Positions 42,610 through 58,821 of a DNA stretch of 64,000 nucleotides are shown one piece after another (the stretch's first letter is position 1; each line of letters starts with the position of its first letter). The notes below the pieces were generated by a model. It made no database searches, was not told where the DNA came from, and was given only the letters and a program-made list of their open reading frames with translations. The position numbers and the translations under genes are program-made. Source of the stretch: Candidatus Bathyarchaeota archaeon (GTDB taxonomy: Archaea; Thermoproteota; Bathyarchaeia; Bathyarchaeales; Bathycorpusculaceae); the NCBI GenBank assembly GCA_963772455.1, contig CAVYXJ010000013.1, forward strand, positions 32,001-96,000. The letters run 5' to 3'.

Positions 42610-42680
42610 ATGTAAAAAATTTGCGGCTTTGGATTGCAACTGTATTTTAAAAGTTTTTCTGTTGCCCAAAGAAATCCGAT

Positions 42681-43319: not shown

Positions 43320-43479
43320 TAAATAACATGTTGTTTTTGTTTTCGTTTACTGTTGCAATAAATGCCAAAGGGTATAGCTCATTTTTTTGAGGATAACTAC
43401 TGATAGAACAACATTTAAAAAAAAGTTTGTTGTTGTTCTTTCAGTTATAGATCGTCTTTATTGGCAGTACAAGAACGAT

Positions 43480-43876
43480 CTCCACGTGGGTATCGTGGCA
43501 GTAGATGGGACAAGCAACGTAAATATGGTTCATTATTCGAACGTCAAAATCGTAATGTAAATACCAAAATAGGTAAAATTGCTCGTATTTTTCAGTTTAC
43601 CAGAATAATTTTACTCGATTTTCAACGAAAAAACGTATTAAAAAGTCTGAAAATTTAGGCAATCATACTTTTTTATATGAAGGCGAAAATACAATTCGAT
43701 AACATACTTTACTTATCGCAAAAACCCTCTTTGAAAACAACCGATCAACCCAACCTATGAACGCAACACAAAAAAACTTACTTTGTTAAAGTTAAGTTTA
43801 TCAAGCTTTTAGTTTAAAATTTAGTTTATGCTTTTTCCTAAACGTTGGGTTTGTTTTGAGAGATGGGTTTTCGATG
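43480..43876. repeat. Conserved array-distal block, copy 1 (direct repeat of 53090-53482)
   Basis: Starts cgtgggtatcgtggcag; highly similar from ~43610 (ttttactcgattttcaacgaaaaaac...) into the gene tail ISQNKPNV. Confidence 0.92.
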
Positions 43877-45013
43877 CATTCTAAAAAGCAAAAGAGAGAC
43901 CAAGATAACCGTTAAAACAACAACCACAACAATAATGAGGTAAAAAATTGTTATCCCTATGAATGCTGGAAAAACAAGTGGATGATGGTCAATGTTGTTT
44001 TGGTCAATAACGTGTGTTCCGTTACCAGAATAGTCACTCCAGTAATTACCCTCTTTTCCATTATCCCACGAAACAATATCAGTTCCGTTAACTGAGGTTG
44101 GATTTTTATTCAAATAAGTTGTCTCAACCAAGGCATTTTGACCATTACTGACAAAGTTATTGCTATAAACAACGTTTCCTAACCCAATGTATGCATCGCC
44201 AGAGACTACAAAATTCTCAAGTTTAATCCCAATAGTGTTCCCGTCAACTTCATTATTATGAAAATCTGTGTTGCTAACGCCACGCCCAAAATTGGCCCCA
44301 AAGATACTGTTGTCTATTATCTTATTATCATGGATTGAATAAGGACCAGTCCACTCGAGAACCAATCCTTCCTCATTATTCATAATTGTATTATCGTTGA
44401 CAATCACGTATCGTGAGTAAATGCTAACCCCTTGACTGTTGTGGCTGATTGTGTTTCCTGAAATCACACCTGTAGAAGCCATGCCGTTTGATGAGATTCC
44501 AATTCCTCCTTCATTATTGATAATGGTGTTGTCTTTTATCTCAAAGTTTTCACTTCTTTCAACCATAATTGCTTGGTTATTATCGGTAATGATGTTCCCT
44601 ATTATTTTGCAGTTAGAAGGAATTGCTTGTTGGGCATAATTTGCGACAGATATGGCTGTTTCACAGTTTCTTATCGTGAACCCAGAGATGGTTACATCTG
44701 GGGCTCCAACCTTAATTGTTGCACCGGCAAAAGGGTATTTTTGACCCTGAATAATAGTTTTCTGAGGAGATTCTCCTGTTAAGGAAATTGATTTGCCTAT
44801 TGTTAGCTCTCCAACCTGAAATGTTCCGCTCCTAACATAAACGGTATCTCCTGTATTGGCATTGTTTATAGCCCCTTGGATTGTTTGGTAATTATCTGGA
44901 ACAGTTATTGCTCTCGGTAGGACATAAGTCCTTAGAATTACTATTGTAAAAACGGATGCCGCTATGACAAGAGCAATAAGCAAAACAGCAGAACTCTTTC
45001 TGATAGTTCCCAT
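43838..45013 (-). CDS. Surface protein cassette: NosD/right-handed beta-helix with C-terminal TM
   Basis: ITVPDNYQTIQGAI, parallel beta-helix repeats, WDNGKEGNYWSDY, D..PL, TM, tail RKPISQNKPNV. Confidence 0.88.
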   Translation of the reverse strand: MGTIRKSSAVLLIALVIAASVFTIVILRTYVLPRAITVPDNYQTIQGAINNANTGDTVYVRSGTFQVGELTIGKSISLTGESPQKTIIQGQKYPFAGATIKVGAPDVTISGFTIRNCETAISVANYAQQAIPSNCKIIGNIITDNNQAIMVERSENFEIKDNTIINNEGGIGISSNGMASTGVISGNTISHNSQGVSIYSRYVIVNDNTIMNNEEGLVLEWTGPYSIHDNKIIDNSIFGANFGRGVSNTDFHNNEVDGNTIGIKLENFVVSGDAYIGLGNVVYSNNFVSNGQNALVETTYLNKNPTSVNGTDIVSWDNGKEGNYWSDYSGNGTHVIDQNNIDHHPLVFPAFIGITIFYLIIVVVVVLTVILVSLLLFRMHRKPISQNKPNV

Positions 45014-45037
45014 AGTTAGCTGATAGACCCGCTTTAA

Positions 45038-45137
45038 ATAAAAGACTTCTCGTACAAGACTCTTGACTAAGAGCAGTCAAACTTCCTTTACTGAACTGTG
45101 TTTGTGTTTTTTGTGGTAGACCAACAAACCAGCAGAT
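45038..45137. repeat. Cassette junction repeat J1 (promoter, two palindromes, upstream gene tail)
   Basis: ataaaagacttctcGTACAagactcTTGACtaagagcaGTCAAacttccTTTACtg...tgtgttttttgtggtagaccaacaaaccagc; near-identical to 56156-56251. Confidence 0.9.
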
Positions 45138-46210
45138 GCCACCAAGATAAAAGCAACGACTGAAACAGCGGTTATAATGACCAAGTTTCGAGAGGAGTCT
45201 AATCCTGATTTAGTTTCATAAGATGGAGCAATAAGCGGATAATGGTCTATATTTGTAGCATCAATAACATAAGCTGTATCTCCGATGCCGTCCCAGTTAG
45301 CATCTGAACCATTATAGCCTTGCCAGTAATTGCCTTCTTTGCCATTATCCCAAGAAGTATCTTGAACTGTCACATCCAAACTTACAGGGTTATTTTTACC
45401 TAAGAAGGTATTGTGAAAAAAAGTATTATTTGTAGCTAAACCAATAATTAAATTGGTACCATAACGTCCAACACTAATTTTGTTATTATCAAAAATATTG
45501 TTGCTGCTATTATAAATTTGAAGTGCACTGTTGAGTTTTCCTTCCGTGTCAATAGTATTTTCAAAGATTATATTCTGGTTAGAAGAATTCAAGTAAAAGT
45601 AAGACATTTCATTTAAACCGATTGTGTTCTGGTCAGCCAATTCCAGATTAAGGGTGTAAATATTATTTTTGAGGAGAGTATTATAAGCGCCTACTAGTTC
45701 AACGCGCCCGTTCCAAGTGTTATTAGATATATTACAGTTAGACCCACTTATTGACAACGTCTTCCCGCCTGTTATGTTATTGTCGCATATTTGGGTTCTA
45801 TCGCCTTCTACCGTGATGTCTCCGAACGGCGAGAGGATAATTGTTAAGTTTACAAGCCGCACATCATTGGCTTTAATGTTAATTGAATCCGTATGACCAT
45901 AAAAAGGGGTAGTTATAATCCATTCCACACCATATGCAGGGAACAAATTTATTACAGTCTTCTTGGCGTTTTCTCCGATAATCCAGAGGGATTTGTCAAT
46001 TATCAATGTTTGATTAATTGGTCCATCATATTCTCCCTCTTTAACAAATATCGTATCCCCATTAGTTGCATTTCCGATTGCCGATGCAATCGTTGGATAA
46101 TCGTCTGGAACAATGATAGTTTTGTTTTCAGCTTTGACTGGCAAAAATGTGATTATGGATGATGCTGTTAGGAAGACGAGAACAAGTGCTAAAGCTAAAG
46201 CTTTACTCAT
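45077..46210 (-). CDS. Surface protein cassette: NosD/beta-helix with C-terminal TM
   Basis: Signal MSKALAL...VKA, IIVPDDYPTI, WDNGKEGNYW, tail GLLVYHKKHKH. Confidence 0.88.
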   Translation of the reverse strand: MSKALALALVLVFLTASSIITFLPVKAENKTIIVPDDYPTIASAIGNATNGDTIFVKEGEYDGPINQTLIIDKSLWIIGENAKKTVINLFPAYGVEWIITTPFYGHTDSINIKANDVRLVNLTIILSPFGDITVEGDRTQICDNNITGGKTLSISGSNCNISNNTWNGRVELVGAYNTLLKNNIYTLNLELADQNTIGLNEMSYFYLNSSNQNIIFENTIDTEGKLNSALQIYNSSNNIFDNNKISVGRYGTNLIIGLATNNTFFHNTFLGKNNPVSLDVTVQDTSWDNGKEGNYWQGYNGSDANWDGIGDTAYVIDATNIDHYPLIAPSYETKSGLDSSRNLVIITAVSVVAFILVASAGLLVYHKKHKHSSVKEV

Positions 46211-46240
46211 TGCCACCACTTCATTGTTGGTTGGTTTGCA

Positions 46241-46299
46241 GATAAAAGACTTCTCGTACAAGACTCTGGACTAAAATTAGTTAAGAATTCTGGACTAAG
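46241..46299. repeat. Cassette junction repeat J2
   Basis: gataaaagacttctcGTACAagactcTGGAC + GTTAAgaattcTGGAC, 24 bp apart. Confidence 0.88.
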
Positions 46300-46398
46300 C
46301 TGAATTGCGGATATTATTAAAATAGTTTACCTTCATCGAGAACATTGCCGTTTAGTTTAATTGAGGCAATGAAACTTGAATTTATGACTTCTAACGTT

Positions 46399-47199
46399 TT
46401 ATTTCCTGTTTTTCCTTAGGGCAACCAAAAGAACAACAGCAATTGCTACAAGTCCAATCCCAATGGCACCAATATAATAGGTTGAAAAATTAGTTGTTAC
46501 TGAGAAATTTGTTACAGCTTCAGCTCTTCCCTTTTCAGTCACCACTATCATTAAGATTTCATAGTTACCCTCAGAGATTGATGTTAAAGTTGTATTTCCT
46601 GTGAGGGGATATTCATTTGATGTATCAGGTCCATAGTGTGGGTAATCTGCATTTTCATACAAATAGTAAGATGCCTTCTCCATGTTTCCATTAACAGTAA
46701 AGATTAGAGGTATCTCTCCAGTGTAGGTTTGGTTTGTTGGAGATAAAATTTTGATGCTTGTAACTTGATAGCTGGAATTTACTGTAAAGTCTCTTGATGT
46801 GTACATGCCGTTTGCGTAAGCTTCCACTGTGTGGTTACCGTCAGATAAGTTCTCGAGAATAGCTTTGCCAATTACTGTGTAGCCAACTCTTCCTGGACCA
46901 AAGTTCGAAGGGCTTTTGATTGTGAGATTTCCAATATATTGCAATGGCTCTCCATCTACACTGTAGGCTATGTTGTTAACTTTTTGTGATTCAGCGAATT
47001 GATAGACATTCACTTCAAGATTGACAGTAGAATTCTCATATCTATTTGGAGGGTAAGGGGGAGAGATAATCTTCATAGAAGGTATTGGAATTTCATCAAA
47101 AAGGGAACCTTCTGTCACTAAGAGTTGAGAGGTAGCCCCTACTAATAGCAGCATTAGCAAAATAGTAGCTACATTATAGGTCTGTCTCATGTTTACCAA
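46399..47199 (-). CDS. Surface protein cassette: tandem Ig-like domains with TM
   Basis: IISP..NxxY repeats, YSVDG, NLSDGNH, C-terminal TM + RKNRK. Confidence 0.82.
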   Translation of the reverse strand: MVNMRQTYNVATILLMLLLVGATSQLLVTEGSLFDEIPIPSMKIISPPYPPNRYENSTVNLEVNVYQFAESQKVNNIAYSVDGEPLQYIGNLTIKSPSNFGPGRVGYTVIGKAILENLSDGNHTVEAYANGMYTSRDFTVNSSYQVTSIKILSPTNQTYTGEIPLIFTVNGNMEKASYYLYENADYPHYGPDTSNEYPLTGNTTLTSISEGNYEILMIVVTEKGRAEAVTNFSVTTNFSTYYIGAIGIGLVAIAVVLLVALRKNRK

Positions 47200-47220
47200 G
47201 GTCTGCTAATAGATTTCTAC

Positions 47221-47326
47221 TTAAGAGTTTTTTCGTAAAGGTTTCTTGACTAACTCTGAAAACTGCTCGGTCAAACTTTCTTTACTAAGTTGTGTTTGTG
47301 TTTTTTGTGGTAGACCAACAAACCAG
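47221..47326. repeat. Cassette junction repeat J3
   Basis: GTAAAggtttcTTGAC (47235) + GTCAAactttcTTTAC (47270) + LLVYHKKHKH tail DNA. Confidence 0.85.
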
Positions 47327-48218
47327 CAACTACCAAGGCTACTACTGCAACAGAAATAGAGGCAAAAGGAACAATTGGGAAAGGCAGGGTTTCTTCCTCA
47401 GGGACATTGAAAACAACAACAGCGCCATGTACAGACGGTGGTTCTTCTTCTCGGGAGAAAGCAATTGTCATTCTTCCAGCTTTACCATCAATCAGAGTAT
47501 TGTTTAAGGGCGTCAATGTTCCACGGGTATCTATAGAATAAGCTTGCAACTCAAAGAGGTCGGATTCAATCTGAATGCCGTATTTGTTGGGAGAATATCC
47601 ATACCAAGAGTACAGTGGGTATGAAATATTGCTGCATCCATAGCGCCCGTATAAAGGCAGTGTAAATGAATAGTCTCCAAGGTAAGCATAAGATGTTGGG
47701 GTTTTTGAAATCGGAAGCTCATAATGAATTGCCACAACAAAGTCACGCAAAACAGGTGAAACAGTCCAATTGATTTCCTGCAAGTTGGTGTCAAAAATAT
47801 GGAAATATCCACGAGAATCTATTTGTGATTCGACTTCTTCACCGTTTAACCAAACAGAGATGTGAGTCGTGTTAAAAGGAATTGGATAGTGAGCTTCCAA
47901 CGTATCTTGTGTAACGATAACTGTAACATAAGGTGATGAATCTTTTATCAAACCCATGCCAGTATTTTCTGCGATATAGCTATCTCCTAAGGCGTAAACT
48001 GTGTGCATTTTGTATTCTGCATCAATCTTCACCCATAAGGCTTCATCAACTCGGAAGATTGTGGCGTTGATGTTAGTTTCAGGCACGTTGACCTTTGGCG
48101 GGATTCCATAAGTGGGGTATGCTTTTGCAGTATTGACCGTTTGTAGTTCTCCAAAAGTAACCATGTATAATGTCAGGAGTAAGAAAATGACAAGTAGTTT
48201 GGCTGTGTTCTTGTTCAT
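47271..48218 (-). CDS. Surface protein cassette with C-terminal TM
   Basis: Signal peptide, beta-rich body, tail GLLVYHKKHKHNLVKKV. Confidence 0.82.
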   Translation of the reverse strand: MNKNTAKLLVIFLLLTLYMVTFGELQTVNTAKAYPTYGIPPKVNVPETNINATIFRVDEALWVKIDAEYKMHTVYALGDSYIAENTGMGLIKDSSPYVTVIVTQDTLEAHYPIPFNTTHISVWLNGEEVESQIDSRGYFHIFDTNLQEINWTVSPVLRDFVVAIHYELPISKTPTSYAYLGDYSFTLPLYGRYGCSNISYPLYSWYGYSPNKYGIQIESDLFELQAYSIDTRGTLTPLNNTLIDGKAGRMTIAFSREEEPPSVHGAVVVFNVPEEETLPFPIVPFASISVAVVALVVAGLLVYHKKHKHNLVKKV

Positions 48219-48252
48219 TTCAATTCCTACCAGTATAGGGCTGTTTTAGTGA

Positions 48253-48287
48253 TTAAAGATTTTTCCAAGTAAAGAATTCTGGACAAA
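48253..48287. repeat. Cassette junction repeat J4 (single palindrome)
   Basis: GTAAAgaattcTGGAC at 48269-48284 beside the TATA of the 48218 gene. Confidence 0.7.
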
Positions 48288-48373
48288 CAAAAAGTAGTCC
48301 TTCCAGCCTCGCCGCCATTCCTATAAAGGTGTGACCGGACAAGGGACACGTTAAATTCGTGGAGGTCAACAAA

Positions 48374-49494
48374 ATGATAACACAAGTAAATACAACGATT
48401 GAATTAAAACCAGAATTAGTCAATTTAGCTTGTGAAATAGGTTTAAATCCGTCTAAAATCTGTGAAAATGCCCTTAAATCGGCAATAAGGTGCCTTCAAG
48501 GCGTAAATTTGAATAAGTGTTTGGTGGACGAGCCGGGATTTGAACCCGGGACCTCCACGATGCCAACAGGGACAGAAACAAGCTCTTTTTCAGAAAAAAA
48601 GGCTGAATTAATCGTTAAACCTGAAACCCTCGTCACATTTGCGGAATTCATGACTGTAAACATGCGCCTTGAAAAGAGAACGGTTCGGGAAACAAAATCC
48701 AATGTTCATCGGTATTTAGAAAGTTCAAAATATGTCGTAAACTATGAAACTGTCTCGAAATTCCTGAAATCATACATGACCAAATCCTCAAGGACGTATA
48801 ACGCTCAGCTAACAAGTCTTGCGAAGATTTGTTAGAGATTTCTTGCATGCACCTGAAAGCATTTTAGATTTTAAGATGGCTCCAATTGATTTGTTAGGCA
48901 AAAACATACAGCTACCAACAAAAGAACAATTGAAGAAAGGTTTTGACGCTTTAACCGAAGAAGGCGAGAAAGCATTGTATTTGTTTACTTTGTCAACAGG
49001 TCTGCGCCGAAGCGAAATCATGGGGCTGACAAAAGACAAAATAGACTTCAAAATGCAGAAGCGTTATTCCCTTGCATTTCACACGCGTTAAACGATCAGG
49101 AATTACATTTTACAACTCAGAAACCGAAGAATACCTAAACAAATACTTGTCAGCACGACCAGACGATACCAAAGTTTTTAGGCTGTGTCCAAAGAAATGC
49201 AAGTTGATGTGGCGGAAAATCAGCGAAGCAGCAGGAATTAAGATTTCACCTCAAATTCTACGAGTTTGGTTTTCAAACGAACTGGGGGAACAATTCGTTC
49301 CTGATCGATTTGTTGACATTTTCCAAGGGCGTGCACCAAGATCTGTTTTCGCGAAGAGCTACACTGCAAAAGGAATTGAACGGTTAAAAGCAATTTATGA
49401 AAAAGCTAACTTAACTATTACTTGTCAAGACGCAAATGCCTTTGTTTTTTCAATAGCTCATCCGTTAAGCTTTCGGCATGACTTTTCCTCTTGA
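48374..49494 (+). CDS. SSV-type tyrosine integrase: int(N) RHH-like domain + att + int(C); two frameshifts (~48818, ~49052)
   Basis: TGLRRSEI (Arg), RVKRSG (Lys), PQILRVWF, FQGRAPRSVFAKSYT (Tyr); reading frame runs through the tRNA-Ala 3' copy. Confidence 0.88.
48522..48567 (-). repeat. att site: copy of the 3' half of tRNA-Ala(GGC)
   Basis: tggtggacgagccgggatttgaacccgggacctccacgatgccaac matches 58500-58545 with one mismatch and ends just after the anticodon loop. Confidence 0.95.
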
Positions 49495-50025
49495 ATCCAT
49501 CAAATCACCGTCTTGAAGCCCACGTGTTTCTTCTGCTAATTTGTACGCATGTCTGAGCAAAACAAAGCTCAAAGCACGTTTGACTTCTTTTTCATCTCTG
49601 GCAAATTCATTGCCAAAATCTATTTCGTCAGCCGTAGTCAATTCTTCTTCATGTTTTCTCATATATCTTAATTCTAAATTAATGAATTTCTGAACTTCTT
49701 TAGGCAGTTCTTTAGCAAGTTCTTTGACCTTTTCTGTGATCAATTTTTCTGAAATCGTAAACAATTTGGCGTTCTCACGTTTGAGTGTAATAGACATTCT
49801 TTTTGGCGTTTACTTTGTTTTGGCAGTTTATCGATGTATATTCCATCCATTTCTTCTTTGAGATAACGGTAGAGTTGTATTCGCGTCCCATGGGCTTTTT
49901 ACATTTTTGTCGTTAACGTGTGTTGCGAAGGTCAAGAAGTTTTTTTGACCTGATATTGGAGTTCCGTCAGGCATCAAATCAAGAATCTTTTCGATGTATT
50001 TTTCAGAATGTCTTCGGTTTACCAT
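49465..50025 (-). CDS. Element hypothetical protein(s), probably one frameshifted DNA-binding protein
   Basis: ORFs 49828-50025 and 49465-49797 bridged by alternative-frame IQLYRYLKEEMDGIYIDK. Confidence 0.5.
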
Positions 50026-50126
50026 ATTTCACCATCTTTAGTTTGGATATGCGAGCAAATAACCATAATAAAAACGATGTATATAAGTCATTCTGTCAAG
50101 TCAGCAATTGACATCATGCAAAAAAC

Positions 50127-50271
50127 ATGGAGATAAAAAAATTGGTAAAAATTCCAAGAATTGAATGCCCTCAGTGCCTCTATAATTGGCGTCCCGAGGG
50201 TAGAACCTTTGCCAAAACGTTGTCCAAATTGTGGACATAGGCTATCGCAGGAAAGTGAGGTGAAACAATGA
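50127..50271 (+). CDS. Small zinc-ribbon protein (one frameshift near 50195)
   Basis: Corrected translation MEIKKLVKIPRIECPQCLYNWRPRVEPLPKRCPNCGHRLSQESEVKQ; stop overlaps next ATG. Confidence 0.65.
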
Positions 50272-50684
50272 ACGAGAAAGAAATAGCAAAAATGATTGCA
50301 GAAAGCGAAGTCTTAGAGCCTTACCTGAGAAAAATGCCGCCAATCCCACAATACCAACTCGATTCGCAACAAGCTATTGAACTCTACAGAAAAGACGTAG
50401 ACGCGATGGAAGAAAACAATTTTCGAATCGCCGTTTTCCAATGTGCCTATGACATAGCAATCTGGCTTAGTGAAGGTGGAGGTTCGTTTACGTCTTTGCA
50501 ATGCATGACTCCTGAGTCTCACAAAAAAACTTTCAGTCAAATCAACTTTGGTCAACTCGAAACAAACGCTCAAGGAATAAGACAGGAAATTAAAAGATTG
50601 AAAATGGCTAAACCATTAATTTTAAAACTAATTGATGCAAACGCTAAGGCACAATGGGATAAAACTCAGTACAATCACTGTTGA
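50268..50684 (+). CDS. Element hypothetical protein
   Basis: 138 aa, GAGGTGA RBS. Confidence 0.75.
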   Translation: MNEKEIAKMIAESEVLEPYLRKMPPIPQYQLDSQQAIELYRKDVDAMEENNFRIAVFQCAYDIAIWLSEGGGSFTSLQCMTPESHKKTFSQINFGQLETNAQGIRQEIKRLKMAKPLILKLIDANAKAQWDKTQYNHC

Positions 50685-50711
50685 AACGCCAAATCGAATC
50701 ATCCACCCGAG

Positions 50712-51158
50712 TTGAATACGATTGGATGTAAGCATGAGTTAAAAACTAAAGGTCAGGAAGCCGTTCTTGACTTGGCTATACTTCAATACGAAAAGATTCT
50801 TGAAGTCTACAATATAGAGGCATCTGACAGAAAGAAATCCCCCATCGTTAAAGACATCATCAACAACATAACTTCATTGATTAAACAGGCAGAAAAAATA
50901 CACCCAATCATAGTTAAAGCTAATCTGAAAGCACAAAAAGCTTTGGCAAATGGCATTTCGCCTGATCTTAAAACTTGTAACTCTTTTATCGATGCAACTG
51001 CCAAATTCTCTGAATTGAGCCACGAATATTTCACTCAAAAGGGCAAACTCGATTTCTACACAGACCAATCTTCAAACGATCTTGTCTTTCCAACTTTAAC
51101 CAACAACGACACATCTGCTGAATATGAGATGAAGCGACAATGGAGGAAATTTGCCTAA
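50712..51158 (+). CDS. Element hypothetical helical protein
   Basis: 148-aa ORF in operon orientation. Confidence 0.65.
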   Translation: MNTIGCKHELKTKGQEAVLDLAILQYEKILEVYNIEASDRKKSPIVKDIINNITSLIKQAEKIHPIIVKANLKAQKALANGISPDLKTCNSFIDATAKFSELSHEYFTQKGKLDFYTDQSSNDLVFPTLTNNDTSAEYEMKRQWRKFA

Positions 51159-51407
51159 ACAATCGGAAGCCGCATGCTCCACAAAAGGCTCAGACAGCTC
51201 GTTTTCCGGATGCGCGTACGTAAACGGAATTTTCCGCAAAGCAGGGCTTAATCTTTGCCCTTGATTCCCCTAACGCGCGGGGCTCCTGCTTGGAGGTTTT
51301 ATGTCATCGCTGTCGGGCTCTGCGGAAAAGCATGTGGCTTTCAAACGAAGTTGCGTTTCATCAATCCCCTTTTTCATTTTTTATTATTATTAACGGAGGT
51401 GAATTAC

Positions 51408-52064
51408 ATGAATAACAAAGTAGGAAAACTCATAAAGACAATATCAATCGATAACAAGCCAGAACTTGTTCAGCATATTGAGAAACAATCGAATTTCAGC
51501 AACTACGTTCAAACACTCTTAGAGCAAGACCTTGCAAGACTTCACGCAACACAGCAACAAAAACAGACTGAAGCGAAAATAGAGCTAACAAAAGATGAAT
51601 ACCTCACATTCGAGCATTGTAAAAAATATTTCAGAGAATATGGCGGTATGACCTATGCAAAGTACTTCCATTACTTCCCTGTGCAAATAAGCTCCGACCA
51701 TCTGAATTGTTTATTGTTAGATGTTTATGATATTTGTAAAACGTATGCTCCAACAACCGCCGAATACATTAAGCATATTAGAGAAAACGATGAAGACTTT
51801 GATATCTTCTACGATAAAATAAGTCGTTATTGGCAACAAGAAAATCCAATACCTGAAGACTGGAAGAAAGAAATCATACCTGGAATGACATTGCATGAAG
51901 CACTTTCAAAGATTATACCTGAAGCTATCAAGCTAAAAGACAAAGATATTCCATTAACAATCAAACGAATCAGCGAGATAGTGGGGTTAACCTATCAGCA
52001 AACATACACACAACTAATGCCACATATCAGACCTATTCTAAAAGAGCTACAGGTTGAAGTTTAA
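51408..52064 (+). CDS. Element regulator-like protein (N-terminal RHH-like, C-terminal HTH-like)
   Basis: GGAGGTGA RBS before ATG 51408; KTISID...NFSNYVQTLL; LTIKRISEIVGLTYQQTY. Confidence 0.65.
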   Translation: MNNKVGKLIKTISIDNKPELVQHIEKQSNFSNYVQTLLEQDLARLHATQQQKQTEAKIELTKDEYLTFEHCKKYFREYGGMTYAKYFHYFPVQISSDHLNCLLLDVYDICKTYAPTTAEYIKHIRENDEDFDIFYDKISRYWQQENPIPEDWKKEIIPGMTLHEALSKIIPEAIKLKDKDIPLTIKRISEIVGLTYQQTYTQLMPHIRPILKELQVEV

Positions 52065-52882
52065 TAATAATAAAAAAAAATAAACCCTTTCTTTTTTGTT
52101 AAACTAATCGAGGCAATCTTAACCTGATGTTTCCTTAACGTTAACATGAATAGTGAAGTCAGCGTTACCGCAGTAAACAGCGTTATAATTGCTAACAATG
52201 AAAACTCTGGAACAGTGGGAGTTGGCGTTGGATTGGGAGTGGGAGAAGCAGATGAAGTTTCACCGATGGTTATTGTTTGTGTATCGCTCCAATCGCTTGT
52301 TTCACCGATAAAAGTCCATCCGCTTGGACTTGATTCAGAGTTATAGCTAATGTAGCCTATGAATGCTTTAACTTGAAAATCAATTTGGGAGTCAGGTGGT
52401 AACGTTGGACCGAACCCATTCCATCCAGCCGATGAATAGTCTCCTTTATACGAAAAAACCGAATACTCTGTTTTTAATTGGGCATCTTCTACCGTCAACA
52501 TAGCATATTCATCATAGGGGTAATACTTCTGATGCCAGTCTTTTTCAAAATGTCCCTTCCAATGAATCTCATAGTGAAGATAAACAGTCCTGTCCCCAAT
52601 CTGTTCCTTGATTGTAAAAGGGGTGAATGGCTGATTCTTTACCGAAAGTTGAATGGTTCTTGATTCAACATGCCGTCCAGCCTCGTTTATAACCTGTCCG
52701 TTGAAAGGGTTTACCGTTGAAGAAGGTGGAATATCATAAGAGGAGTCGATAAGGGTAACATTAAACTCAGGCACAGAGGGTTTAGGTATTGACTGAGCAT
52801 ATGCAGATTCAATCATTATCAGACTTGAAACTGCTAAGACAATAACAAGAAGTAACGAGAACCCTTTGCCGATACTGCCCAT
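52061..52882 (-). CDS. Surface protein, AQSIPKPSVPEF family, PEF-CTERM-like anchor
   Basis: Signal peptide, PT-rich linker, TVPEF + TM + RKH. Confidence 0.85.
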   Translation of the reverse strand: MGSIGKGFSLLLVIVLAVSSLIMIESAYAQSIPKPSVPEFNVTLIDSSYDIPPSSTVNPFNGQVINEAGRHVESRTIQLSVKNQPFTPFTIKEQIGDRTVYLHYEIHWKGHFEKDWHQKYYPYDEYAMLTVEDAQLKTEYSVFSYKGDYSSAGWNGFGPTLPPDSQIDFQVKAFIGYISYNSESSPSGWTFIGETSDWSDTQTITIGETSSASPTPNPTPTPTVPEFSLLAIITLFTAVTLTSLFMLTLRKHQVKIASISLTKKKGFIFFYYY

Positions 52883-53089
52883 ATCAAGTACTAAGAGAAT
52901 AGAAGCGATAAAAGGTTTATTCCAAAAAACTATACTATTTCAATTCTCCTAATTTGATTCGCTTTGAGAGTTGTTGTACTTTTCGAGGTTGCTTCGTTGT
53001 TGGTATCGTAAATGTTGAGAAAGCTAAAAGCTGCAAATTCCATTAGAAATAGGTTTAAGATGGAAAAACTCCATTCTTTTGCTAATGTT

Positions 53090-53482
53090 CACCGCGTGGG
53101 TATCGTGGCAGATGAATGCTGTTTCATTGAACATGTTTGCAATTATCGAAGCTAAAATTTGAAGTAAACATTGAAACAAGGTAAAATATGCCTTAATTTT
53201 CAATTTTACAGAGAATTTTTACTCGATTTTCAACGAAAAAACATATTAAAAAGTCTGAAAATTTAGGCAATTATACTTTTTTATACATAGATGAAAATGC
53301 AATTCGATAACATACTTTACTTATCGCAAACCTTCTTTGAAAACGACCGATCAACCACCCTCTGATCGCAACACAAAAAAAACTTACTTTGTTAAAGTTA
53401 AGTTTATCAAGCTTTTCATTATAAATTTAGTTTATGCTTTTTCCTAAACGTTTGGTTTGTTTTGAGAGATGGTTTTTCGATG
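53090..53482. repeat. Conserved array-distal block, copy 2
   Basis: Direct repeat of 43480-43876. Confidence 0.92.
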
Positions 53483-54388
53483 AGTTCTGTAAAACAGAAG
53501 ATAGATAATAACTATAACTAATACGACAAATACGAATGGAACTATTAAGACAAAATTGTTGTCAGATACTTGAGAAGGCGTTGGCGTAGGGGTTTGCATC
53601 GGAGTTGGTAAAGGTTTTACTGAGGGCAAAGGCAAAAACGGTTCTGTCTTAATCAAATAAATCCTTCCTGTTCGTGGATTATCGAATAAATTATATCCAA
53701 CACCCAAAACAGCGAGTGCACCATTAGATGTTTCAATTATCGAAGAAATCTCAAGAGGAGCAGTGCCATCACCACCAGTGTAGGTCAGGTTTATTATCCA
53801 TTGAGTGTTGTTATTTGAATCAGTTTTAATAAGGCTGCCTTGTTCTCCATAAACAAACCCGCTATCACTTGTTTGAACGAGAGTTGGAGCACTGCCTAAG
53901 TCTGGTACACTTGAATAATTTTGAATCCATTGGATGTTTCCTTGAGAATCTGTTTTAATTAAAGTAGGAGTGAATTCACGTGCCCCTCCGCCAATTAAAG
54001 CGGAAAACCAGCTTCCTGATAATTCATATCCTTCATCGCTTGTTTGGATAAATGTTGTTGCTCTAAAGTAACTGATGGTTTTATTCCATTGTAAATTGCC
54101 TGATGAATCAACTTTGTATAGGGTTGATGGTCTAATAGTGTACTGGTATGACCAACCCAAATTCACGAAAACGTACCCTCCATCACTTGTTTGAATTAGG
54201 TTTGAAGTTGATTCAACATTAGTGTCGCCATAAGGACCAGAATCACCGTAATCTTTTTGCCATTGTATAGTGGGAGCAGAAGTAAATGTGGTTGATTGGG
54301 CTTTCACGGTTGCAGGTTCAAGTGTAATTAAAGAAGTTAGGAACAACGCAACAAGAACCAATGCAAAACTCTTGCTTTTCTTACCCAT
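53444..54388 (-). CDS. Surface protein cassette: beta-propeller-like repeats with TM
   Basis: QTSDGGY/LIKTDS.GN.QW repeats, tail RKTISQNKPNV. Confidence 0.85.
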   Translation of the reverse strand: MGKKSKSFALVLVALFLTSLITLEPATVKAQSTTFTSAPTIQWQKDYGDSGPYGDTNVESTSNLIQTSDGGYVFVNLGWSYQYTIRPSTLYKVDSSGNLQWNKTISYFRATTFIQTSDEGYELSGSWFSALIGGGAREFTPTLIKTDSQGNIQWIQNYSSVPDLGSAPTLVQTSDSGFVYGEQGSLIKTDSNNNTQWIINLTYTGGDGTAPLEISSIIETSNGALAVLGVGYNLFDNPRTGRIYLIKTEPFLPLPSVKPLPTPMQTPTPTPSQVSDNNFVLIVPFVFVVLVIVIIYLLFYRTHRKTISQNKPNV

Positions 54389-54410
54389 AGTAAGCTGATA
54401 GAACCATTTC

Positions 54411-54446
54411 AGATAAAAGACTTCTCGTTCAAGACTCTTGACTAAG
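54411..54446. repeat. Cassette junction repeat J5
   Basis: agataaaagacttctcGTTCAagactcTTGACtaag. Confidence 0.88.
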
Positions 54447-54510
54447 CACTATTTGCGTTTTCTGTATGTATTATTTAGGCGAAGATGTCAGAGCATTCAG
54501 TAGATAAGTA

Positions 54511-55224
54511 TTAGGAATAGAAAATAACTTTGAGATATTTTTGCTCACTTTTTTTGTTCTTCAATTGCGATATAAGTGTAACAGTAATTATTGCTGCAGC
54601 AATTAGAAAAGCAACACCTATGTATAGATACAAATTATCCTTCTCCATTTGGGCAGTATAAGTTACCAAATACTCTTTAAAGTCAAAAACTTGTACGAAT
54701 CCTCCATGTAGAAAAATTGCAGTATAGTAATTGCCTGATTCTGTAGCCCTAAAAGCTACTGCTCCATTCTTCCTTGCTACATTTGATGCCTCAAAATTAG
54801 TTCCATTTTTACTTGCCCATGCCGAGAAGTCAAAACTGTTATTGTTTAACTGAATAACAACTGATTTAAAGTTGGTAAATTGTTGCTCAGAAAAAATGAA
54901 GCCAGTTACGTAAATATCTGTGTCCCACTTAGCTTCTATGCCTTGTCCTGCGTGGAGAGATATTGGTGGTAGATTGAGAAAATCAGTATTAGGTGGCTGA
55001 AATGGAGGATAATAATAGTTCCCATTTAGGTATGTGTTATTTACTGATGCTACTGGATTTGGGTAGTTTATGTTTGGAGTATCAGTTTGATAAGAACTCC
55101 TTATTGGAGCAGTATGTGGAGAAGCAAAGTTGAGAGAGATAAAAAATGCGCCCGTTAGAAGCAATATTAAGATAACTATTTTTACTATATTTCTAAGTCT
55201 GAATCTCTCTACCTTTGGCTTCAT
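54511..55224 (-). CDS. Surface protein cassette with N- and C-terminal TMs
   Basis: Start set at MKPKVER from TATA spacing. Confidence 0.75.
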   Translation of the reverse strand: MKPKVERFRLRNIVKIVILILLLTGAFFISLNFASPHTAPIRSSYQTDTPNINYPNPVASVNNTYLNGNYYYPPFQPPNTDFLNLPPISLHAGQGIEAKWDTDIYVTGFIFSEQQFTNFKSVVIQLNNNSFDFSAWASKNGTNFEASNVARKNGAVAFRATESGNYYTAIFLHGGFVQVFDFKEYLVTYTAQMEKDNLYLYIGVAFLIAAAIITVTLISQLKNKKSEQKYLKVIFYS

Positions 55225-55250
55225 ATCCATATTCTGTAAGATGTTAGTCC

Positions 55251-55350
55251 ATAAAAGCCTTGCAGTAAACAATTCTTGACTGAGATTCGTAAAATTTCCT
55301 TTACTAAGTTAAGTTTGTGTTTTTTGTGGTAGACCAACAAACCAGCAGAT
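55251..55350. repeat. Cassette junction repeat J6
   Basis: GTAAAcaattcTTGAC (55265) + GTAAAatttccTTTAC (55289) + tail DNA. Confidence 0.85.
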
Positions 55351-56130
55351 GACACCATAATAGTTCAGTAGCAGAGGAATTGTCCATAAGGGAAACTCTG
55401 GAACTGTCGGGGTGGGTGTCGATGATGTTATGGTTGGAGTTGGTGTTAAATTTGGTGAGGGTGAGGTTGAAGTGGAAGTTGGAAGAGGTTCAGGATAAAT
55501 CAATGTTGGATATGGGGAATTATCAATACTGCTTGCAAAAACGTTTGCAGTATCACTTTGGTTAATTGTCACAGTAAGCGTATTGCTCCATCCACTATCT
55601 TGACCATTAATCACGGGATAGGGAAAAAGTGGTTGTATAACCCAGCTTTGGTAGCCAATCATAGATATTACTTGAACATCAATCACTGAACCTTTAGAAA
55701 AATCTTGGTGGATAGTGAAATAGGTAAAAACAGAACTATAGTTTCTATTTAGGAAGCCCTCGTCTTCTCCGCCATAAAGATATTGCCAATATTCACCAAA
55801 GTGTCCCTTATAGCGGACATTGTAGAAGAAGTTAAGGTCACGTCTTGTACCATTGGGGTTTGTTAGTACAAACTGGTTGAAGGGTTGATTTTTGATTTTC
55901 CCTTCAATTTTTATATCGGTAATATGTCTGCTGGGAATAGTCGTTTGTTGCCCAGTATAGGGGTCTGTTTGGATTGTTGCAGTAGTATCATATGAATTAT
56001 CAACCACTTGGATAGAAAACTGCGGAACAGATGGTTTAGGAATAGTTTGAGCATTGACGGATTCTGTCAAAAATACAGAGAAGGCTAAGATAACTACAAT
56101 TAGTACTGAGAAACCCTTGATACATTCCAT
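55309..56130 (-). CDS. Surface protein cassette, AQTIPKPSVPQF family, PEF-CTERM-like (frameshift near 55363 in the TM)
   Basis: Start MECIKGF; TVPEFPLW; SAGLLVYHKKHK lies in the adjacent frame. Confidence 0.82.
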   Translation of the reverse strand: MECIKGFSVLIVVILAFSVFLTESVNAQTIPKPSVPQFSIQVVDNSYDTTATIQTDPYTGQQTTIPSRHITDIKIEGKIKNQPFNQFVLTNPNGTRRDLNFFYNVRYKGHFGEYWQYLYGGEDEGFLNRNYSSVFTYFTIHQDFSKGSVIDVQVISMIGYQSWVIQPLFPYPVINGQDSGWSNTLTVTINQSDTANVFASSIDNSPYPTLIYPEPLPTSTSTSPSPNLTPTPTITSSTPTPTVPEFPLWTIPLLLNYYGVICWFVGLPQKTQT

Positions 56131-56947
56131 GTTTAAGGTTAGGGTTGGTTTGTAGATAAAAGACTTCTCGTACAAGACTCTTGACTAAGAGCAGTAAAAC
56201 TTTCTTGACTAAGTTGTGTTTGTGTTTTTTGTGGTAGACCAACAAACCAGCTAACACCAGCGTTATTGTTAGTAGTAGCGGAATTGTCAATGAGGAAAAC
56301 TCTGGAACGGTAGGAGTTGGCGTTGAATTAGGTGAGGGTGAAGTTGAAGTGGAAGTCTCAGGTATGGTTATTGTTTGTGTTTTACTCCAACCACTTGCTT
56401 CACCTGTAAAAACCCAAGGAGCCAAAGGTAGTTGCTGGTCTCTGAAGGAATTGCCTATCAACGCTTCAACTTGAAAATCTGCTTGACTGCCTGAAGGAAT
56501 ACTCAAAATTCTTAGACTCGAATGCAAAGACTCTGCTCCCGACAAAGCGAATGAAATGATGGTACTTTGATTTCCTGAATCTTGACTTGGATATGCATCA
56601 GGACTAAAAAGCTCCTGCCAATCGGTTGAAGAATGTTCCTTCCAGCGAACATTATAGAAAAATCCAATTCCAAAGGTATCATCAACATAAGGTTGATTCT
56701 TAATAATTATCTTTACGGCACTATATTCCATATGATATCCATTATCATTAGCTTCAAACAGTCCAGTGCTGGGATTAAGAGAGTAAGTTGGTGGTTTGTC
56801 AAAAGATGGACCTATTAACTCTAAGGTGAATTGCGGAACAGATGGTTTTGGTATTGTTTGAGCATTTACAGATTCAACCATCAGTAGACTTAGACTTGAG
56901 ATAGCCATTGTTAAAATCAGAACTATTGCTAAATTCTTGCTATTCAT
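56036..56947 (-). CDS. Surface protein cassette, AQTIPKPSVPQF family, PEF-CTERM-like; usual stop lost
   Basis: TVPEFSSL + TM + LLVYHKKHKHNLVKKV, then reads through J7. Confidence 0.82.
   Translation of the reverse strand: MNSKNLAIVLILTMAISSLSLLMVESVNAQTIPKPSVPQFTLELIGPSFDKPPTYSLNPSTGLFEANDNGYHMEYSAVKIIIKNQPYVDDTFGIGFFYNVRWKEHSSTDWQELFSPDAYPSQDSGNQSTIISFALSGAESLHSSLRILSIPSGSQADFQVEALIGNSFRDQQLPLAPWVFTGEASGWSKTQTITIPETSTSTSPSPNSTPTPTVPEFSSLTIPLLLTITLVLAGLLVYHKKHKHNLVKKVLLLLVKSLVREVFYLQTNPNLKHGMYQGFLSTNCSYLSLLCIFDRIRQCSNYS
56156..56251. repeat. Cassette junction repeat J7
   Basis: GTACAagactcTTGAC (56170) + GTAAAactttcTTGAC (56194) + tail DNA. Confidence 0.9.
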
Positions 56948-58184
56948 TGGTGGTCCTTCTATGCTTGAGGTAAACTGCAGCTAAGAGTACAGGCACAAAG
57001 AATGTTAAAATTGCCAATACTGGAAACTCTGGAACGGTAGGTGTAGCTGTTGGTGACAAGGTAGGTGTTGGTTTAGGGGTTGTTGTAGGGGTTGAGGTGG
57101 GAATCGTTGGTGCTTCAGGGTTTGGTGCAGTTAAAAAGGGTGTGAAATTGACTGTACCTAAATTGAAATCATTCTTTTTATCATGGATTGTTTGGCTTAT
57201 CATTGCTGAATTGGTTGTTCCCCACCAATTATTAGTAGCATCCACATTTTCATTAGCTTCTGGAGCTAAGTGTATGTTTTCAGAGTTTCCGTAGATATTG
57301 TTGTTATTAATGCGTGGAGTAGGGTAGGCGATTATGCCAACTGTATTGTTAACTATTGTATTCTTTAGAATAATGCTATGGCTTGCCACTATTCCTTGAT
57401 AGTTATTGATGACTATGTTTTCTTCAACCCTGCAAGAAGGACCTGATTTGATCCCAACTTTGCACCCATAGACTGTATTATTAGATAGAACATAGATGTC
57501 ATGAAAACTGTTGTAAATAATGCCTATTTCTCCACCAATAACCGTGTTGTTTGAAATCGTGGAGGCATCATCGTCTGTATAAATTCCCCAATTAATGTTA
57601 TGAACTACATTGCCTGAAATCGTTGCTGAAGACTTAAAAATTGACATCGTATCCCATTCGCCAAATATTTCATTGTTCGTAATTATAGTTGAACTATATT
57701 GACAGCTTATGTATCCTGTTATTGTGTTGTCGTTTATTTTTGGGGATGTGCCATTAATTTTTATCCAGATTGATTTTAATATGGAGTTTTCTATTATGGA
57801 GCCTAATTGTGTGTTTTTGTTCCAGCTTGGGCTTGGATTCATAAATTCGATATATGATGCTCTATTATCGCCACCGTTGAAATTTACTTTTTCAGTGTTG
57901 CTGCCTTTTGCATTTATTGTGCCATTTACTAATAGGTAATGGTTGTTAAGGTTTACAGTGGCTCCAGAATCAATTGTTAATGTTGCTCCTTGACTTATGG
58001 CTACAGGACCTGCAAGATTGTATGGGCTGTTTGCTTTGGTCCAAGTTGTATCTGAGTTTATTATCATACTGTTGATGGTAGTACCGTTTTGAGCTAATCC
58101 AAAAGGTGTAGTTCCAACAATTATTAAACTCGATACAGCCATAATTAGAACAAGGAATACTGCAAAACTCTTACTTACACCCAT
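56940..58184 (-). CDS. Surface protein cassette: right-handed beta-helix, PEF-CTERM-like
   Basis: TTWTKANSPY, beta-helix repeats, DATNNWWG, TVPEFP + TM + KHRR. Confidence 0.87.
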   Translation of the reverse strand: MGVSKSFAVFLVLIMAVSSLIIVGTTPFGLAQNGTTINSMIINSDTTWTKANSPYNLAGPVAISQGATLTIDSGATVNLNNHYLLVNGTINAKGSNTEKVNFNGGDNRASYIEFMNPSPSWNKNTQLGSIIENSILKSIWIKINGTSPKINDNTITGYISCQYSSTIITNNEIFGEWDTMSIFKSSATISGNVVHNINWGIYTDDDASTISNNTVIGGEIGIIYNSFHDIYVLSNNTVYGCKVGIKSGPSCRVEENIVINNYQGIVASHSIILKNTIVNNTVGIIAYPTPRINNNNIYGNSENIHLAPEANENVDATNNWWGTTNSAMISQTIHDKKNDFNLGTVNFTPFLTAPNPEAPTIPTSTPTTTPKPTPTLSPTATPTVPEFPVLAILTFFVPVLLAAVYLKHRRTTNE

Positions 58185-58207
58185 AGTCAACTTATAGAAC
58201 TCATTTT

Positions 58208-58266
58208 AGATAAAAGACTTCTCGTAAACGTCTATTGACTAAGCCAAGTCAAGGTTTCTTAACTAA
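58208..58266. repeat. Cassette junction repeat J8
   Basis: agataaaagacttctcGTAAAcgtctaTTGAC + GTCAAggtttcTTAAC, 24 bp apart. Confidence 0.85.
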
Positions 58267-58351
58267 CAAAAGGTAGACCTTCCACCTCGCCGCCATTCCT
58301 ATAAAGGTGCATCCGGACAACAGACACGTGTAAAACGTGGAGGTCAACAAA

Positions 58352-58633
58352 ATGATAACACAAGTTAGTTCAACAATCGAGTTAAACCCTGAATTAGCGA
58401 ATTTAGCCTATGAAATGGGTTTAAATGCGTCAAAAATCTGTGAAAACGCCCTTAAATCGGCAATAAGGTGCCTTCAAGGCGTGAACTTGAATAAGTGTTT
58501 GGTGGACGAGCCGGGATTTGAACCCGCGACCTCCACGATGCCAACGTGGCGATCATGCCAGACTGATCTACTCGCCCAAATTTATCTGGCTTCTGAAAGT
58601 TACCCCGCCTCATTTAATAAGCGTTTCTTATAG
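58352..58633 (+). CDS. int(N) fragment (RHH/CcdA-like), reading antisense through tRNA-Ala
   Basis: Nearly identical to the first ~65 aa of the 48374 integrase; diverges at the att crossover. Confidence 0.8.
   Translation: MITQVSSTIELNPELANLAYEMGLNASKICENALKSAIRCLQGVNLNKCLVDEPGFEPATSTMPTWRSCQTDLLAQIYLASESYPASFNKRFL
58500..58577 (-). tRNA. tRNA-Ala(GGC), integration target
   Basis: GGGCGAG...CCACG-TTGGCAT-CGTGG...GGTTCAAATCC...CTCGTCC-ACCA. Confidence 0.95.
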
Positions 58634-58821
58634 AGCCAAGGAAACCATCAAAAAACATTGTTGGAAAAACTTAGATGTTGTATCGACTGAAAGAAGTTAA
58701 CTCTAAGCAATGAATTTTATTATTGCTTTTTTTTAGGGCTTTTTCGACATTAATTCCGGTTCCAAAGGTTTATGCGGCGTAGCTTTTTATAAGGCAAACG
58801 CAAATAGAAAAGCCAAGCAAG

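Follow-up and report, generated by a model that had tools for sequence, protein, structure and literature searches.

Two short dyads, here termed distal and proximal, within an integrative element of Candidatus Bathyarchaeota archaeon are conserved cis-elements of the element lineage, and both copy the dyad of its att core. They lie in a window of 64,000 nt (GCA_963772455.1, contig CAVYXJ010000013.1, positions 32,001–96,000 of the forward strand), which is the whole stretch of DNA analysed and to which all coordinates refer. The interpretation favoured here, tentatively and at a little less than an even chance, is that of these copies of the att core the proximal dyad may be an operator and the distal dyad a secondary recombination site.

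Two decayed integrative elements in tandem at tRNA-Ala(GGC)

About 15.9 kb of DNA (approximately 42650–58545) is inserted at the gene for tRNA-Ala(GGC) (58500–58577, minus strand; ARAGORN, with an Rfam tRNA score of 52.6 bits). The insert is a tandem pair of related integrative elements, both decayed and of the type with an SSV-type ("suicidal") integrase. Empty sites in relatives comprise a polyferredoxin gene, about 95 nt, the tRNA and an inositol-phosphate synthase gene. The att core is the anticodon arm of the tRNA (58531–58550, CTCCACG-atgccaa-CGTGGC), and the tRNA is intact, having been restored after integration, with direct repeats at both ends. The att direct repeat of 56 nt, 98% identical between copies, occurs only twice genome-wide and is in frame within int. 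One copy forms the right end (attR, 58490–58545, plus strand), where the 3' half of the tRNA plus 10 nt falls inside the int(N) frame, and the other lies at the tandem joint (48512–48567, plus strand), where the left element's int(N) adjoins the right element's int(C). Because attP lies inside int, integration divides this gene into two parts, int(C) and int(N). The frame of int(N) that remains after integration (58352–58633, plus strand, 93 aa) runs into the tRNA, and int(C) follows the other att copy. Besides the tRNA, an Rfam scan of 42500–59000 returned only a spurious tmRNA-like match on an att copy.

The hybrid integrase gene at the joint (48374–49494, plus strand) is spread over three reading frames, being disrupted by single-nucleotide insertions at two points, near 48817 and 49055, when aligned to the intact 350-aa integrase of a related element (L001). 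Its matches to PF00589 (E = 1.6e-4) and PF16795 (E = 3.6e-4) are on two frames and both below cut-off; intact 350-aa homologues with 81–84% identity carry both domains. No match was found when the integrase was scanned against viral contigs. As the family's only integrase in this genome is frameshifted, the dyad sites of this genome are probably inert at present.

With a tyrosine recombinase catalytic domain, attP within int and integration into a tRNA, the element can be classed from its sequence as SSV-type. The integrases of SSV1, SSV2, pTN3 and pT26-2 likewise carry attP within a gene that is split on integration into a tRNA, the anticodon stem forming the core and the loop the overlap, with a catalytic domain matching PF00589 and PF16795, according to the part of PMC8371274 that treats them. 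The present elements differ in their Bathyarchaeia host, in an N-terminus resembling a ribbon-helix-helix domain, in conserved additional core dyads that lie outside attP, and in an int(N) that is open and constrained.

Between the att copies, the right element carries backbone genes (49465–52882), of which p138 and p148 have homologues in two related elements (L001 and L040), followed by an array of five genes for secreted or anchored proteins (53444–58190, minus strand). The left element has an array of four such genes (43838–48218, minus strand), one with NosD/beta-helix domains. Searches of backbone and array genes against Pfam and PHROGs found no virus or plasmid hallmark, and no family match for the backbone.

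Copies of the att-core dyad within the elements

The sequence-only reading of this locus had listed five sites, the tRNA att and CACG-N7-CGTG mimics of it bracketing both arrays. All five are present in the sequence at the positions given: the core itself, the distal dyads of the left element (43480–43499, CTCCACG-tgggtat-CGTGGC) and the right element (53090–53109, CACCGCG-tgggtat-CGTGGC, internal), and the proximal dyads of the left (48347–48367) and right (58325–58345) elements, each CACG-N7-CGTGGAGGTC; the four dyads were read on the plus strand. The right distal dyad is imperfect, with CGCG instead of CACG, its left arm giving a G.T mismatch. Similarity between the two copies does begin at the distal sites, as had been claimed (43474–43501 versus 53084–53111, 86%). 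The spacers differ, reading T[AG][GC]GTAT in the distal sites and ATGCCAA in att and being variable over 6–8 nt in the proximal sites, and distal and proximal sites lie in opposite orientations.

The dyads were expected to exceed background and to recur in homologous elements, and both expectations were borne out. The window holds four CACG-N7-CGTG matches against 0.32 expected, a count reached by none of 100 shuffles, and four of the 10 matches in the genome (2,445,428 bases; tetramer-based expectation 4.5) fall within 15 kb at this locus. The proximal pair share a common origin and a further match is the tRNA itself, so that no more than three of the four occurrences can be independent. Both dyads are conserved across 12–13 genomes and many metagenome contigs, beyond the saturation of synonymous sites. 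The sites are non-random and repeat the att-core dyad. Chance resemblance without function could appeal to stems of only 4–5 bp, and to a GGAGGT that is expected anyway as a ribosome-binding site, but is already contradicted by the conservation and is considered extremely unlikely.

The proximal dyad upstream of int

The proximal dyad is followed by GGAGGT; in the left element it begins 25 nt after a TATAAA (48322–48327) and ends 6 nt before the ATG, and the layout is the same in the right element (TATAAA at 58300–58305). Of 17 int upstream regions, drawn from 13 genomes, 15 carry it, with a spacer of 7 nt in 12 of the 15, 6 nt in two and 8 nt in one, the exceptions being a diverged upstream region (L002a) and a 5'-truncated one (L006). 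It is also present in 11 of 12 metagenome loci ending in tRNA-Ala(GGC). The arms are invariant against this variable spacer despite near-saturation at the synonymous sites of int(N), and in L001a the dyad is kept beside a diverged left flank. No recombinant joint was seen at the proximal site in the 17 genome-derived upstream regions or the metagenome loci. Invariant arms, a variable spacer and the position relative to the TATA and ribosome-binding sites fit an operator and not a crossover site, although a spacer of 6–8 nt suits neither a core site of fixed overlap nor a rigid dimer. At a locus beside tRNA-Ala(CGC), with stem CCGCG/CGCGG (L048), an otherwise identical promoter carries CGCA-N7-CGCG, which suggests that the proximal dyad tracks the integration target.

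Most likely, the proximal dyad acts on DNA as a putative operator, overlapping the int transcription start predicted from the TATA position and abutting the ribosome-binding site, where Int or its ribbon-helix-helix-like domain would limit int transcription; this domain would persist after integration as Int(N). Resolvases of Tn3 and gamma-delta repress at res, a recombinase site that overlaps their own promoter, limiting synthesis. There the enzyme is a serine recombinase and res a true recombination site, whereas here the putative operator would be a copy of the core that does not recombine. The F55 protein of SSV1 is a ribbon-helix-helix protein. This small repressor controls int expression (PMC8371274), but is encoded by a separate gene and binds its own repeats, whereas in the present elements the domain forms part of Int and would be released as Int(N) by integration.

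Both dyads might instead be operators of the ribbon-helix-helix type for Int or Int(N), with the likeness to the tRNA stem coincidental or secondary and the distal joints described below arising by microhomology deletion at CCACG. The N-terminus matches Pfam CcdA in eight of nine members (best E = 7.6e-5), and int(N) frames stay open even in islands without int(C), with dN/dS of 0.06–0.66 and most pairs under 0.3. Each subfamily has its own palindrome 10–40 nt before the start codon. In the other integrase subfamilies these are different, AT-rich palindromes at the same position that follow the N-terminal domain rather than the target, which favours a ribbon-helix-helix operator over a mimic of the Int core; one group keeps GTATAC-N4-GTATAC across the targets Gly-CCC, Gly-GCC and Leu-TAA. 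Among loci on other tRNAs, none of 28 mimics its own anticodon stem, and interior mimics number four against 1.4 expected. In Arc- and CopG-type repressors two dimers sit on one face of the helix, an arrangement suited to half-sites lying, as here, 10–12 bp apart centre to centre.

Within the Ala(GGC) group, however, the strand residues presumed to contact bases vary (S/N, T/I, Q/E) while the arms stay constant, and in L048 these residues are the same as in the window, yet the arms have changed to mirror its own tRNA. No palindrome of any kind occurs in a sister group on tRNA-Ala(CGC), though its N-terminal domain is similar, and this weighs against the favoured reading as well. The Pfam matches also fall short of the curated threshold, and the predicted monomer structure is poor (pLDDT 53; coil at residues 1–12, helices at 13–21 and 26–44). 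A homodimer prediction for residues 1–50 scored 0.34 against a mark of 0.42, which speaks neither for nor against a dimer, and a PDB sequence search with the N-terminal profile gave no match under E = 0.3. A ribbon-helix-helix operator role for both dyads is judged unlikely, though well within the range of plausible outcomes.

The distal dyad and its joints

The distal dyad was identified at 13 sites in 12 genomes, always adjoining a conserved non-coding block (43560–43745 in the left element and 53179–53351 in the right). Its spacer is 7 nt in all 13 sites, and its helix is paired in 95.4% of cells, with three G.U states and two compensated pairs, both from one sequence; 30 of 500 shuffles do equally well. 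Pairing of this kind, together with the proximal spacer's freedom in length and sequence and the survival of the distal hairpin without int nearby, might indicate that the dyads act as RNA hairpins, the proximal one as a 5' stem-loop tuning translation or stability and the distal one as a structure in a transcript of the block. That the TATA-inferred transcription start falls at or after the proximal left arm argues against this, as does the lack of any compensatory change in the proximal arms of about 20 diverged sequences. The predicted folds are moreover weak (–3.9 to –7.5 kcal/mol) and no better than those of shuffles (z of –0.6 to –1.8), and a role as RNA hairpins is considered rather improbable.

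At three of the 13 distal sites (L004, L142 and L143), a displaced 3' half of the host tRNA is fused exactly at the left arm: the 40 nt to its left match the tRNA 3' half with p = 0.0003 each, the arm being excluded. The flank in L004 aligns to an empty site with 82% identity over 661 nt, and the tRNA remnant in L142 lies 47 nt from the stop codon of the polyferredoxin gene. All three islands contain int(N), and no int(C) was present within the stretches examined. An origin of every distal site from an old tRNA remnant was rejected, because 10 of the 13 left flanks are not tRNA-like; the flank of the window's own left-hand site is not significantly so.

These tRNA fusions are best read as footprints of recombination between attL and the distal site, deleting int(C) and the backbone; the joints themselves are observed, and catalysis by Int is the step that we infer. 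Deletion at a shared 5-bp CCACG would account for the three joints equally well. Phylogenies of the block and int(N) regions lack resolution (p-AU 0.47) and demonstrate no more than one joint event. The distal dyad resembles attB, its right arm being CGTGGC as in the tRNA. Under the favoured reading of it as a secondary recombination site, Int-catalysed recombination of attL with it would remove int(C) and the backbone, and the remainder would be a locked mini-island of block, array and int(N). The proposal that the dyads are secondary integrase sites is supported for the distal dyad, with its joints, and not for the proximal one, at which none was seen.

Pseudo-att sites of phage lambda Int keep the core dyad with another overlap and recombine at low frequency, the joint lying at the overlap edge. 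Secondary attachment sites of SSV1 similarly keep the core dyad, differ in the overlap and recombine at low frequency, and SSV1 Int cuts on both sides of the overlap region corresponding to the anticodon loop, as set out in the relevant part of PMC8371274. In those systems the outcome is integration elsewhere, whereas here the site lies inside the element, is conserved, and its use results in the loss of int(C) and backbone. The passages of PMC8371274 on suicidal integrases describe no internal att-like sites.

The block and hairpin were also found without int or tRNA nearby (L138–L140 and L145), and in L138 both distal arms have changed in a compensating manner, which indicates a role of the distal dyad apart from Int. 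The L138 arms were considered as a mimic of tRNA-Ala(TGC), a candidate that was rejected as that stem is CTTGA/TCAAG. Contigs from two public read runs (5% of sampled words each) yielded short pieces of relatives. Their joints occurred only between the repeated gene-end units of arrays and at none of the four dyads; both observations are neutral evidence.

Turnover of the gene arrays

The sequence-only reading had further proposed that the dyads bracket the arrays and could let each be moved or exchanged as a unit. As paired secondary att sites, the distal and proximal dyads would then allow Int to excise, move or swap a whole array as a cassette. Use of the distal site as a recombination joint is in keeping with this, as is the fact that array content is wholly different between related elements while both flanks are conserved: at E = 1e-5 the array proteins of the window have no matches in L001, whereas int, p138 and p148 match.

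The limits of the variable region are, however, not at the dyads. Distal-side similarity of the two copies resumes at 43571–43899 versus 53179–53505 (88%), and proximal-end similarity (48265–48567 versus 58244–58545, 88%) begins 82 nt away from the dyad, towards the array. The breakpoints lie at about 43725–43900 and 48265–48317, and the variable part of the array (about 43900–48264) is inside both conserved modules. The sites are also inverted, with spacers differing in sequence and length, no proximal joint occurs in any locus examined, and the footprints record loss of int(C) and backbone with no movement of an array. The conserved 5' and 3' ends of array genes recur in paralogues on at least seven other contigs, so ordinary homologous exchange explains the turnover. 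Movement of the array as a unit is not supported, and a cassette role for the paired dyads appears very unlikely.

Discussion

Suicidal integrases have long posed the question of an element's fate once it has inactivated its own integrase by integrating. In the lineage described here, selection maintains additional core dyads within the element, and one of these copies has served as a joint stripping the element to a cargo island. For uncultured Bathyarchaeia this offers a concrete route by which a mobile element becomes a fixed genomic island. The part of PMC8371274 concerned with int(N) and int(C) calls them inactive pseudogenes; the present data suggest that Int(N), commonly dismissed as the product of a pseudogene, could persist in a regulatory role. 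The dyads also provide defined short DNA sites for first biochemistry on an integrase of this group.

A bolder and improbable version is that the lineage uses copies of the att core for two programmed jobs, as a core mimic on the int promoter through which Int senses its own level, and as an internal attB-like site for resolution. If so, Int would resolve the element soon after its integration, with loss of int(C) and backbone, and the array of surface-protein genes with a still-expressed ribbon-helix-helix Int(N) would stay as permanent cargo at tRNA-Ala, making this a self-truncating integrative element.

Integrative elements at tRNA-Ala(GGC)

The tRNA-Ala(GGC) gene lies on the minus strand at 58500-58577, and its anticodon arm (58531-58550) forms the att core. 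A 56-nt direct repeat (48512-48567 and 58490-58545, 98% identical, the only two copies in the genome) contains the tRNA 3' half, reaching the anticodon loop, and sits in frame within an integrase gene, int, whose intact relatives encode 350-aa tyrosine integrases with PF00589 and PF16795. The layout is SSV-type, with int split upon integration: one N-terminal half, int(N), reads from 58352 into the tRNA, and a second, from 48374, is connected via the repeat to the C-terminal half, int(C). The tests run for membership placed the DNA among SSV-type integrase elements. Measured against the intact gene of the related locus L001, the hybrid has one extra nucleotide inserted near 48817 and another near 49055; these two frameshifts could be assembly errors, and the whole analysis is based on metagenome-assembled genomes. 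The genome, at 92% completeness, has no further int(C).

In relatives whose site is empty, a polyferredoxin gene is followed by ~95 nt, the tRNA and an inositol-phosphate synthase gene, so that the stretch at about 42650-58545 is inserted DNA. It is composed of an older left and a newer right element. From left to right, the latter contains int(C), backbone genes, distal dyad, conserved block, an array of secreted/anchored-protein genes, the int promoter and int(N); the left element has neither int(C) nor a recognisable left att. In a relative with a like tandem layout (L001, 10001-11050; metagenome loci L042/L058), int(N) and int(C) are fused into an unbroken gene of 350 aa, so tandem integration is able to restore a functional integrase gene. 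A 212-aa reading frame (42681-43319, minus strand), situated between the left distal dyad and the polyferredoxin gene, had no family match and no counterpart in related loci, is missing at empty sites, and may be the relic of a third insertion. A weak tmRNA-like Rfam match on the att copy (48522-48629; 22 bits against a cut-off of 47) was rejected, as tRNA-derived sequence accounts for it.

Dyads flanking the arrays

The sequence-only reading had proposed that sites of the form CACG-N7-CGTG bracket both arrays as secondary integrase sites through which the whole array could be moved or exchanged as a unit. Sequence readout recovered its five sequences, namely the anticodon arm, the distal dyads (43480-43499 and 53090-53109) and the proximal dyads (48347-48367 and 58325-58345), the site at 53090 being an imperfect dyad (CGCG...CGTG). 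The motif proved to be above background, with 4 occurrences in the window against 0.32 expected and at least 4 in 0 of 100 shuffles. Genome-wide (24 contigs, 2,445,428 bases) there were 10 matches against a tetramer-based expectation of 4.5, and 4 of the 10 fall inside this 15-kb stretch. Conservation in homologous elements was likewise borne out for both types of dyad.

Of 332 genomes searched from the family, 15 carry the block that adjoins the distal dyad; adding the earlier loci brings the tally to 13 distal dyads from 12 genomes. Spacer and right arm of these dyads (GTATCGTGG) hardly vary, and the left arm is variable. The right arm, CGTGGC, matches the tRNA-side arm of attB, whereas the attP arm differs (CAGGGAC). 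In the helix 95.4% of cells are paired. There are three G.U states, and the two compensated pairs both come from one locus (L138) and are equalled by 30 of 500 shuffles. Units of block and hairpin also occur without nearby int or tRNA (L138-L140, L145), so the distal module has its own role. The block itself (43560-43745 and 53179-53351; loci L001, L004, L038, L040, L041 and L138-L145) is a non-coding stretch of ~130-180 nt, highly conserved over three genera, and contains a T-rich TATA-like stretch; promoter, small RNA and origin are candidate roles. In L004 and L041 a plus-strand gene whose product looks ribbon-helix-helix-like at its N terminus lies 3' of the block, whereas in the window no gene follows it.

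tRNA joints at the distal dyad

In three related loci (L004, L142 and L143), a decayed tRNA-Ala 3' half makes up the 40 nt left of the distal arm (p = 0.0003 for each locus, the arm being excluded from the test); tRNA likeness was absent from the other 10 of the 13 distal left flanks. Across 661 nt that extend through the dyad, the L004 flank aligns at 82% with the empty site L021, and the L142 remnant is 47 nt away from the stop of the polyferredoxin gene, as in another empty site (L016). The remnants are therefore the host's displaced tRNA halves, still where they originally lay. Judged from sequence, what follows these halves from the anticodon-loop position on is the distal spacer and right arm, where int(C) would otherwise stand. 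All three islands retain int(N) at the tRNA, and int(C) was not found within the stretches examined. The simplest history would be recombination between attL and the internal distal site, with the exchange falling on the overlap's left edge and the heterologous spacer retained; deletion at the shared 5-bp CCACG could equally have made the same joint. Differing decay patterns among the remnants and two host contexts hint at more than one event, which the trees do not show (p-AU 0.47). The left-hand distal site of the window has GATCT-CCACG in common with L142, and its left flank shows no significant tRNA likeness.

The notion of secondary sites is thus supported for the distal dyad, where a tRNA half is joined at the arm in 3 of 13 cases, but not for the proximal dyad, where no joint was seen in the loci examined. 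Movement of the array as a cassette between the two sites is opposed by further observations: similarity between related elements stops at about 43725-43900 and 48265-48317, within conserved modules and away from the dyads; distal and proximal dyads are inverted relative to each other; and distal, proximal and att spacers are all unlike. Array genes have conserved 5' and 3' ends that recur at every gene boundary and on at least 7 other contigs of the genome (C5, C6, C7, C12, C16, C21 and C24), and because these ends are shared across contigs, array turnover is explained by homologous exchange within the gene family. The array genes (43838-48218 and 53444-58190) belong to a genome-wide secreted-protein family whose 5' leader and signal regions are nearly the same from gene to gene, as are the ends coding for the C-terminal anchor; NosD/beta-helix domains occur in one member.

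The proximal dyad at the int promoter

Among 17 int upstream regions from 13 genomes, 15 contained the proximal dyad, with a spacer of 7 nt in 12, 6 nt in two (L002b and L041) and 8 nt in one (L144); it was missing from L002a, where the upstream region has diverged, and from the 5'-truncated L006. Metagenome contigs, scanned without bias using the first 49 residues as query, yielded 80 loci. Of those ending in tRNA-Ala(GGC), 11 of 12 had the dyad; in the lone exception (L052) both the right arm and the promoter have decayed. Alignment of 24 distinct sequences, gathered by a loose motif and hence indicative of pattern, not frequency, showed arms and flanks at least 90% conserved, with only the spacer free, except its first T. 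Over the first 49 codons of int(N), dN/dS was 0.06-0.66 (most pairs <0.3) with dS reaching saturation; conservation of the arms at such divergence places the non-coding dyad under selection.

In both proximal copies, TATAAA begins 25 nt upstream of the left arm. The archaeal TATA box is centred ~26-27 nt upstream of the transcription start, so that int transcription is predicted to start where the left arm ends or within the first bases of the spacer. This position speaks more for an operator at the DNA level than for an RNA hairpin, and as RNA the dyad gave weak folds, no better than shuffles.

As the putative reader of the proximal dyad, the core-binding part of Int, for which the dyad would be an att mimic, is rated somewhat above the N-terminal domain. 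The dyad is confined to the lineage targeting tRNA-Ala(GGC), within which N-terminal strand residues differ (S/N, T/I, Q/E) and the arms are constant. A locus beside tRNA-Ala(CGC), L048 (stem CCGCG/CGCGG), carries CGCA-N7-CGCG, in which an A-T pair has become G-C as in the tRNA; its N terminus is 89% identical to that of the window and its promoter is otherwise identical, but it is one case and its innermost pair is broken. Against mimicry, loci on other tRNAs matched their own anticodon stem in 0 of 28 cases (cross-pairing control, 5 of 738), with 4 interior mimics against 1.4 expected, and mimicry is therefore no general rule of the superfamily. Reading by the N-terminal domain, rated somewhat lower, is consistent with Pfam CcdA (ribbon-helix-helix antitoxin) matches in 8 of 9 members, every one below cut-off, and with the AT-rich palindromes found at the equivalent position in more distant subfamilies, a different one in each, with one subfamily retaining a single palindrome over three tRNA targets. 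In a sister group on tRNA-Ala(CGC) the palindrome is entirely absent. The 6-8-nt spacer range suits either reader poorly.

int(N) and the wider integrase family

The metagenome loci (L042-L121) form a broad SSV-type integrase family with a shared N-terminal domain (...GLN.SKICENALK...), tRNA targets including His, Val, Arg, Thr, Gly, Pro, Leu and Glu, and subfamily-specific palindromes immediately 5' of the start codon. In the sister group (L055, L059, L060 and L062), tRNA-Ala(CGC) is represented after int(N) by its anticodon loop and 3' half, in sense, with no 5' half ahead of them, and the target tRNA may be left split.

A literature text search for suicidal integrases with ribbon-helix-helix or secondary attachment sites returned nothing on this subject, and the passages on integrases, tRNA and proviruses in a Bathyarchaeia virus paper (PMC10848311) do not describe the element. 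In the available passages of PMC8371274, the SSV1 cuts are placed on both sides of the anticodon loop, secondary sites are treated solely in the context of integration, and int(N) and int(C) are described as inactive pseudogenes. The Bathyarchaeia element differs from such SSV-type systems in that int(N) is open and constrained. The frame stays open after integration for 72-93 aa, antisense through the tRNA (58352-58633 in the window; L004, L038, L040, L041 and L141-L143), and the constraint (dN/dS 0.06-0.66) holds also in islands without int(C). int(N) may encode a working small ribbon-helix-helix-like protein and not be a pseudogene.
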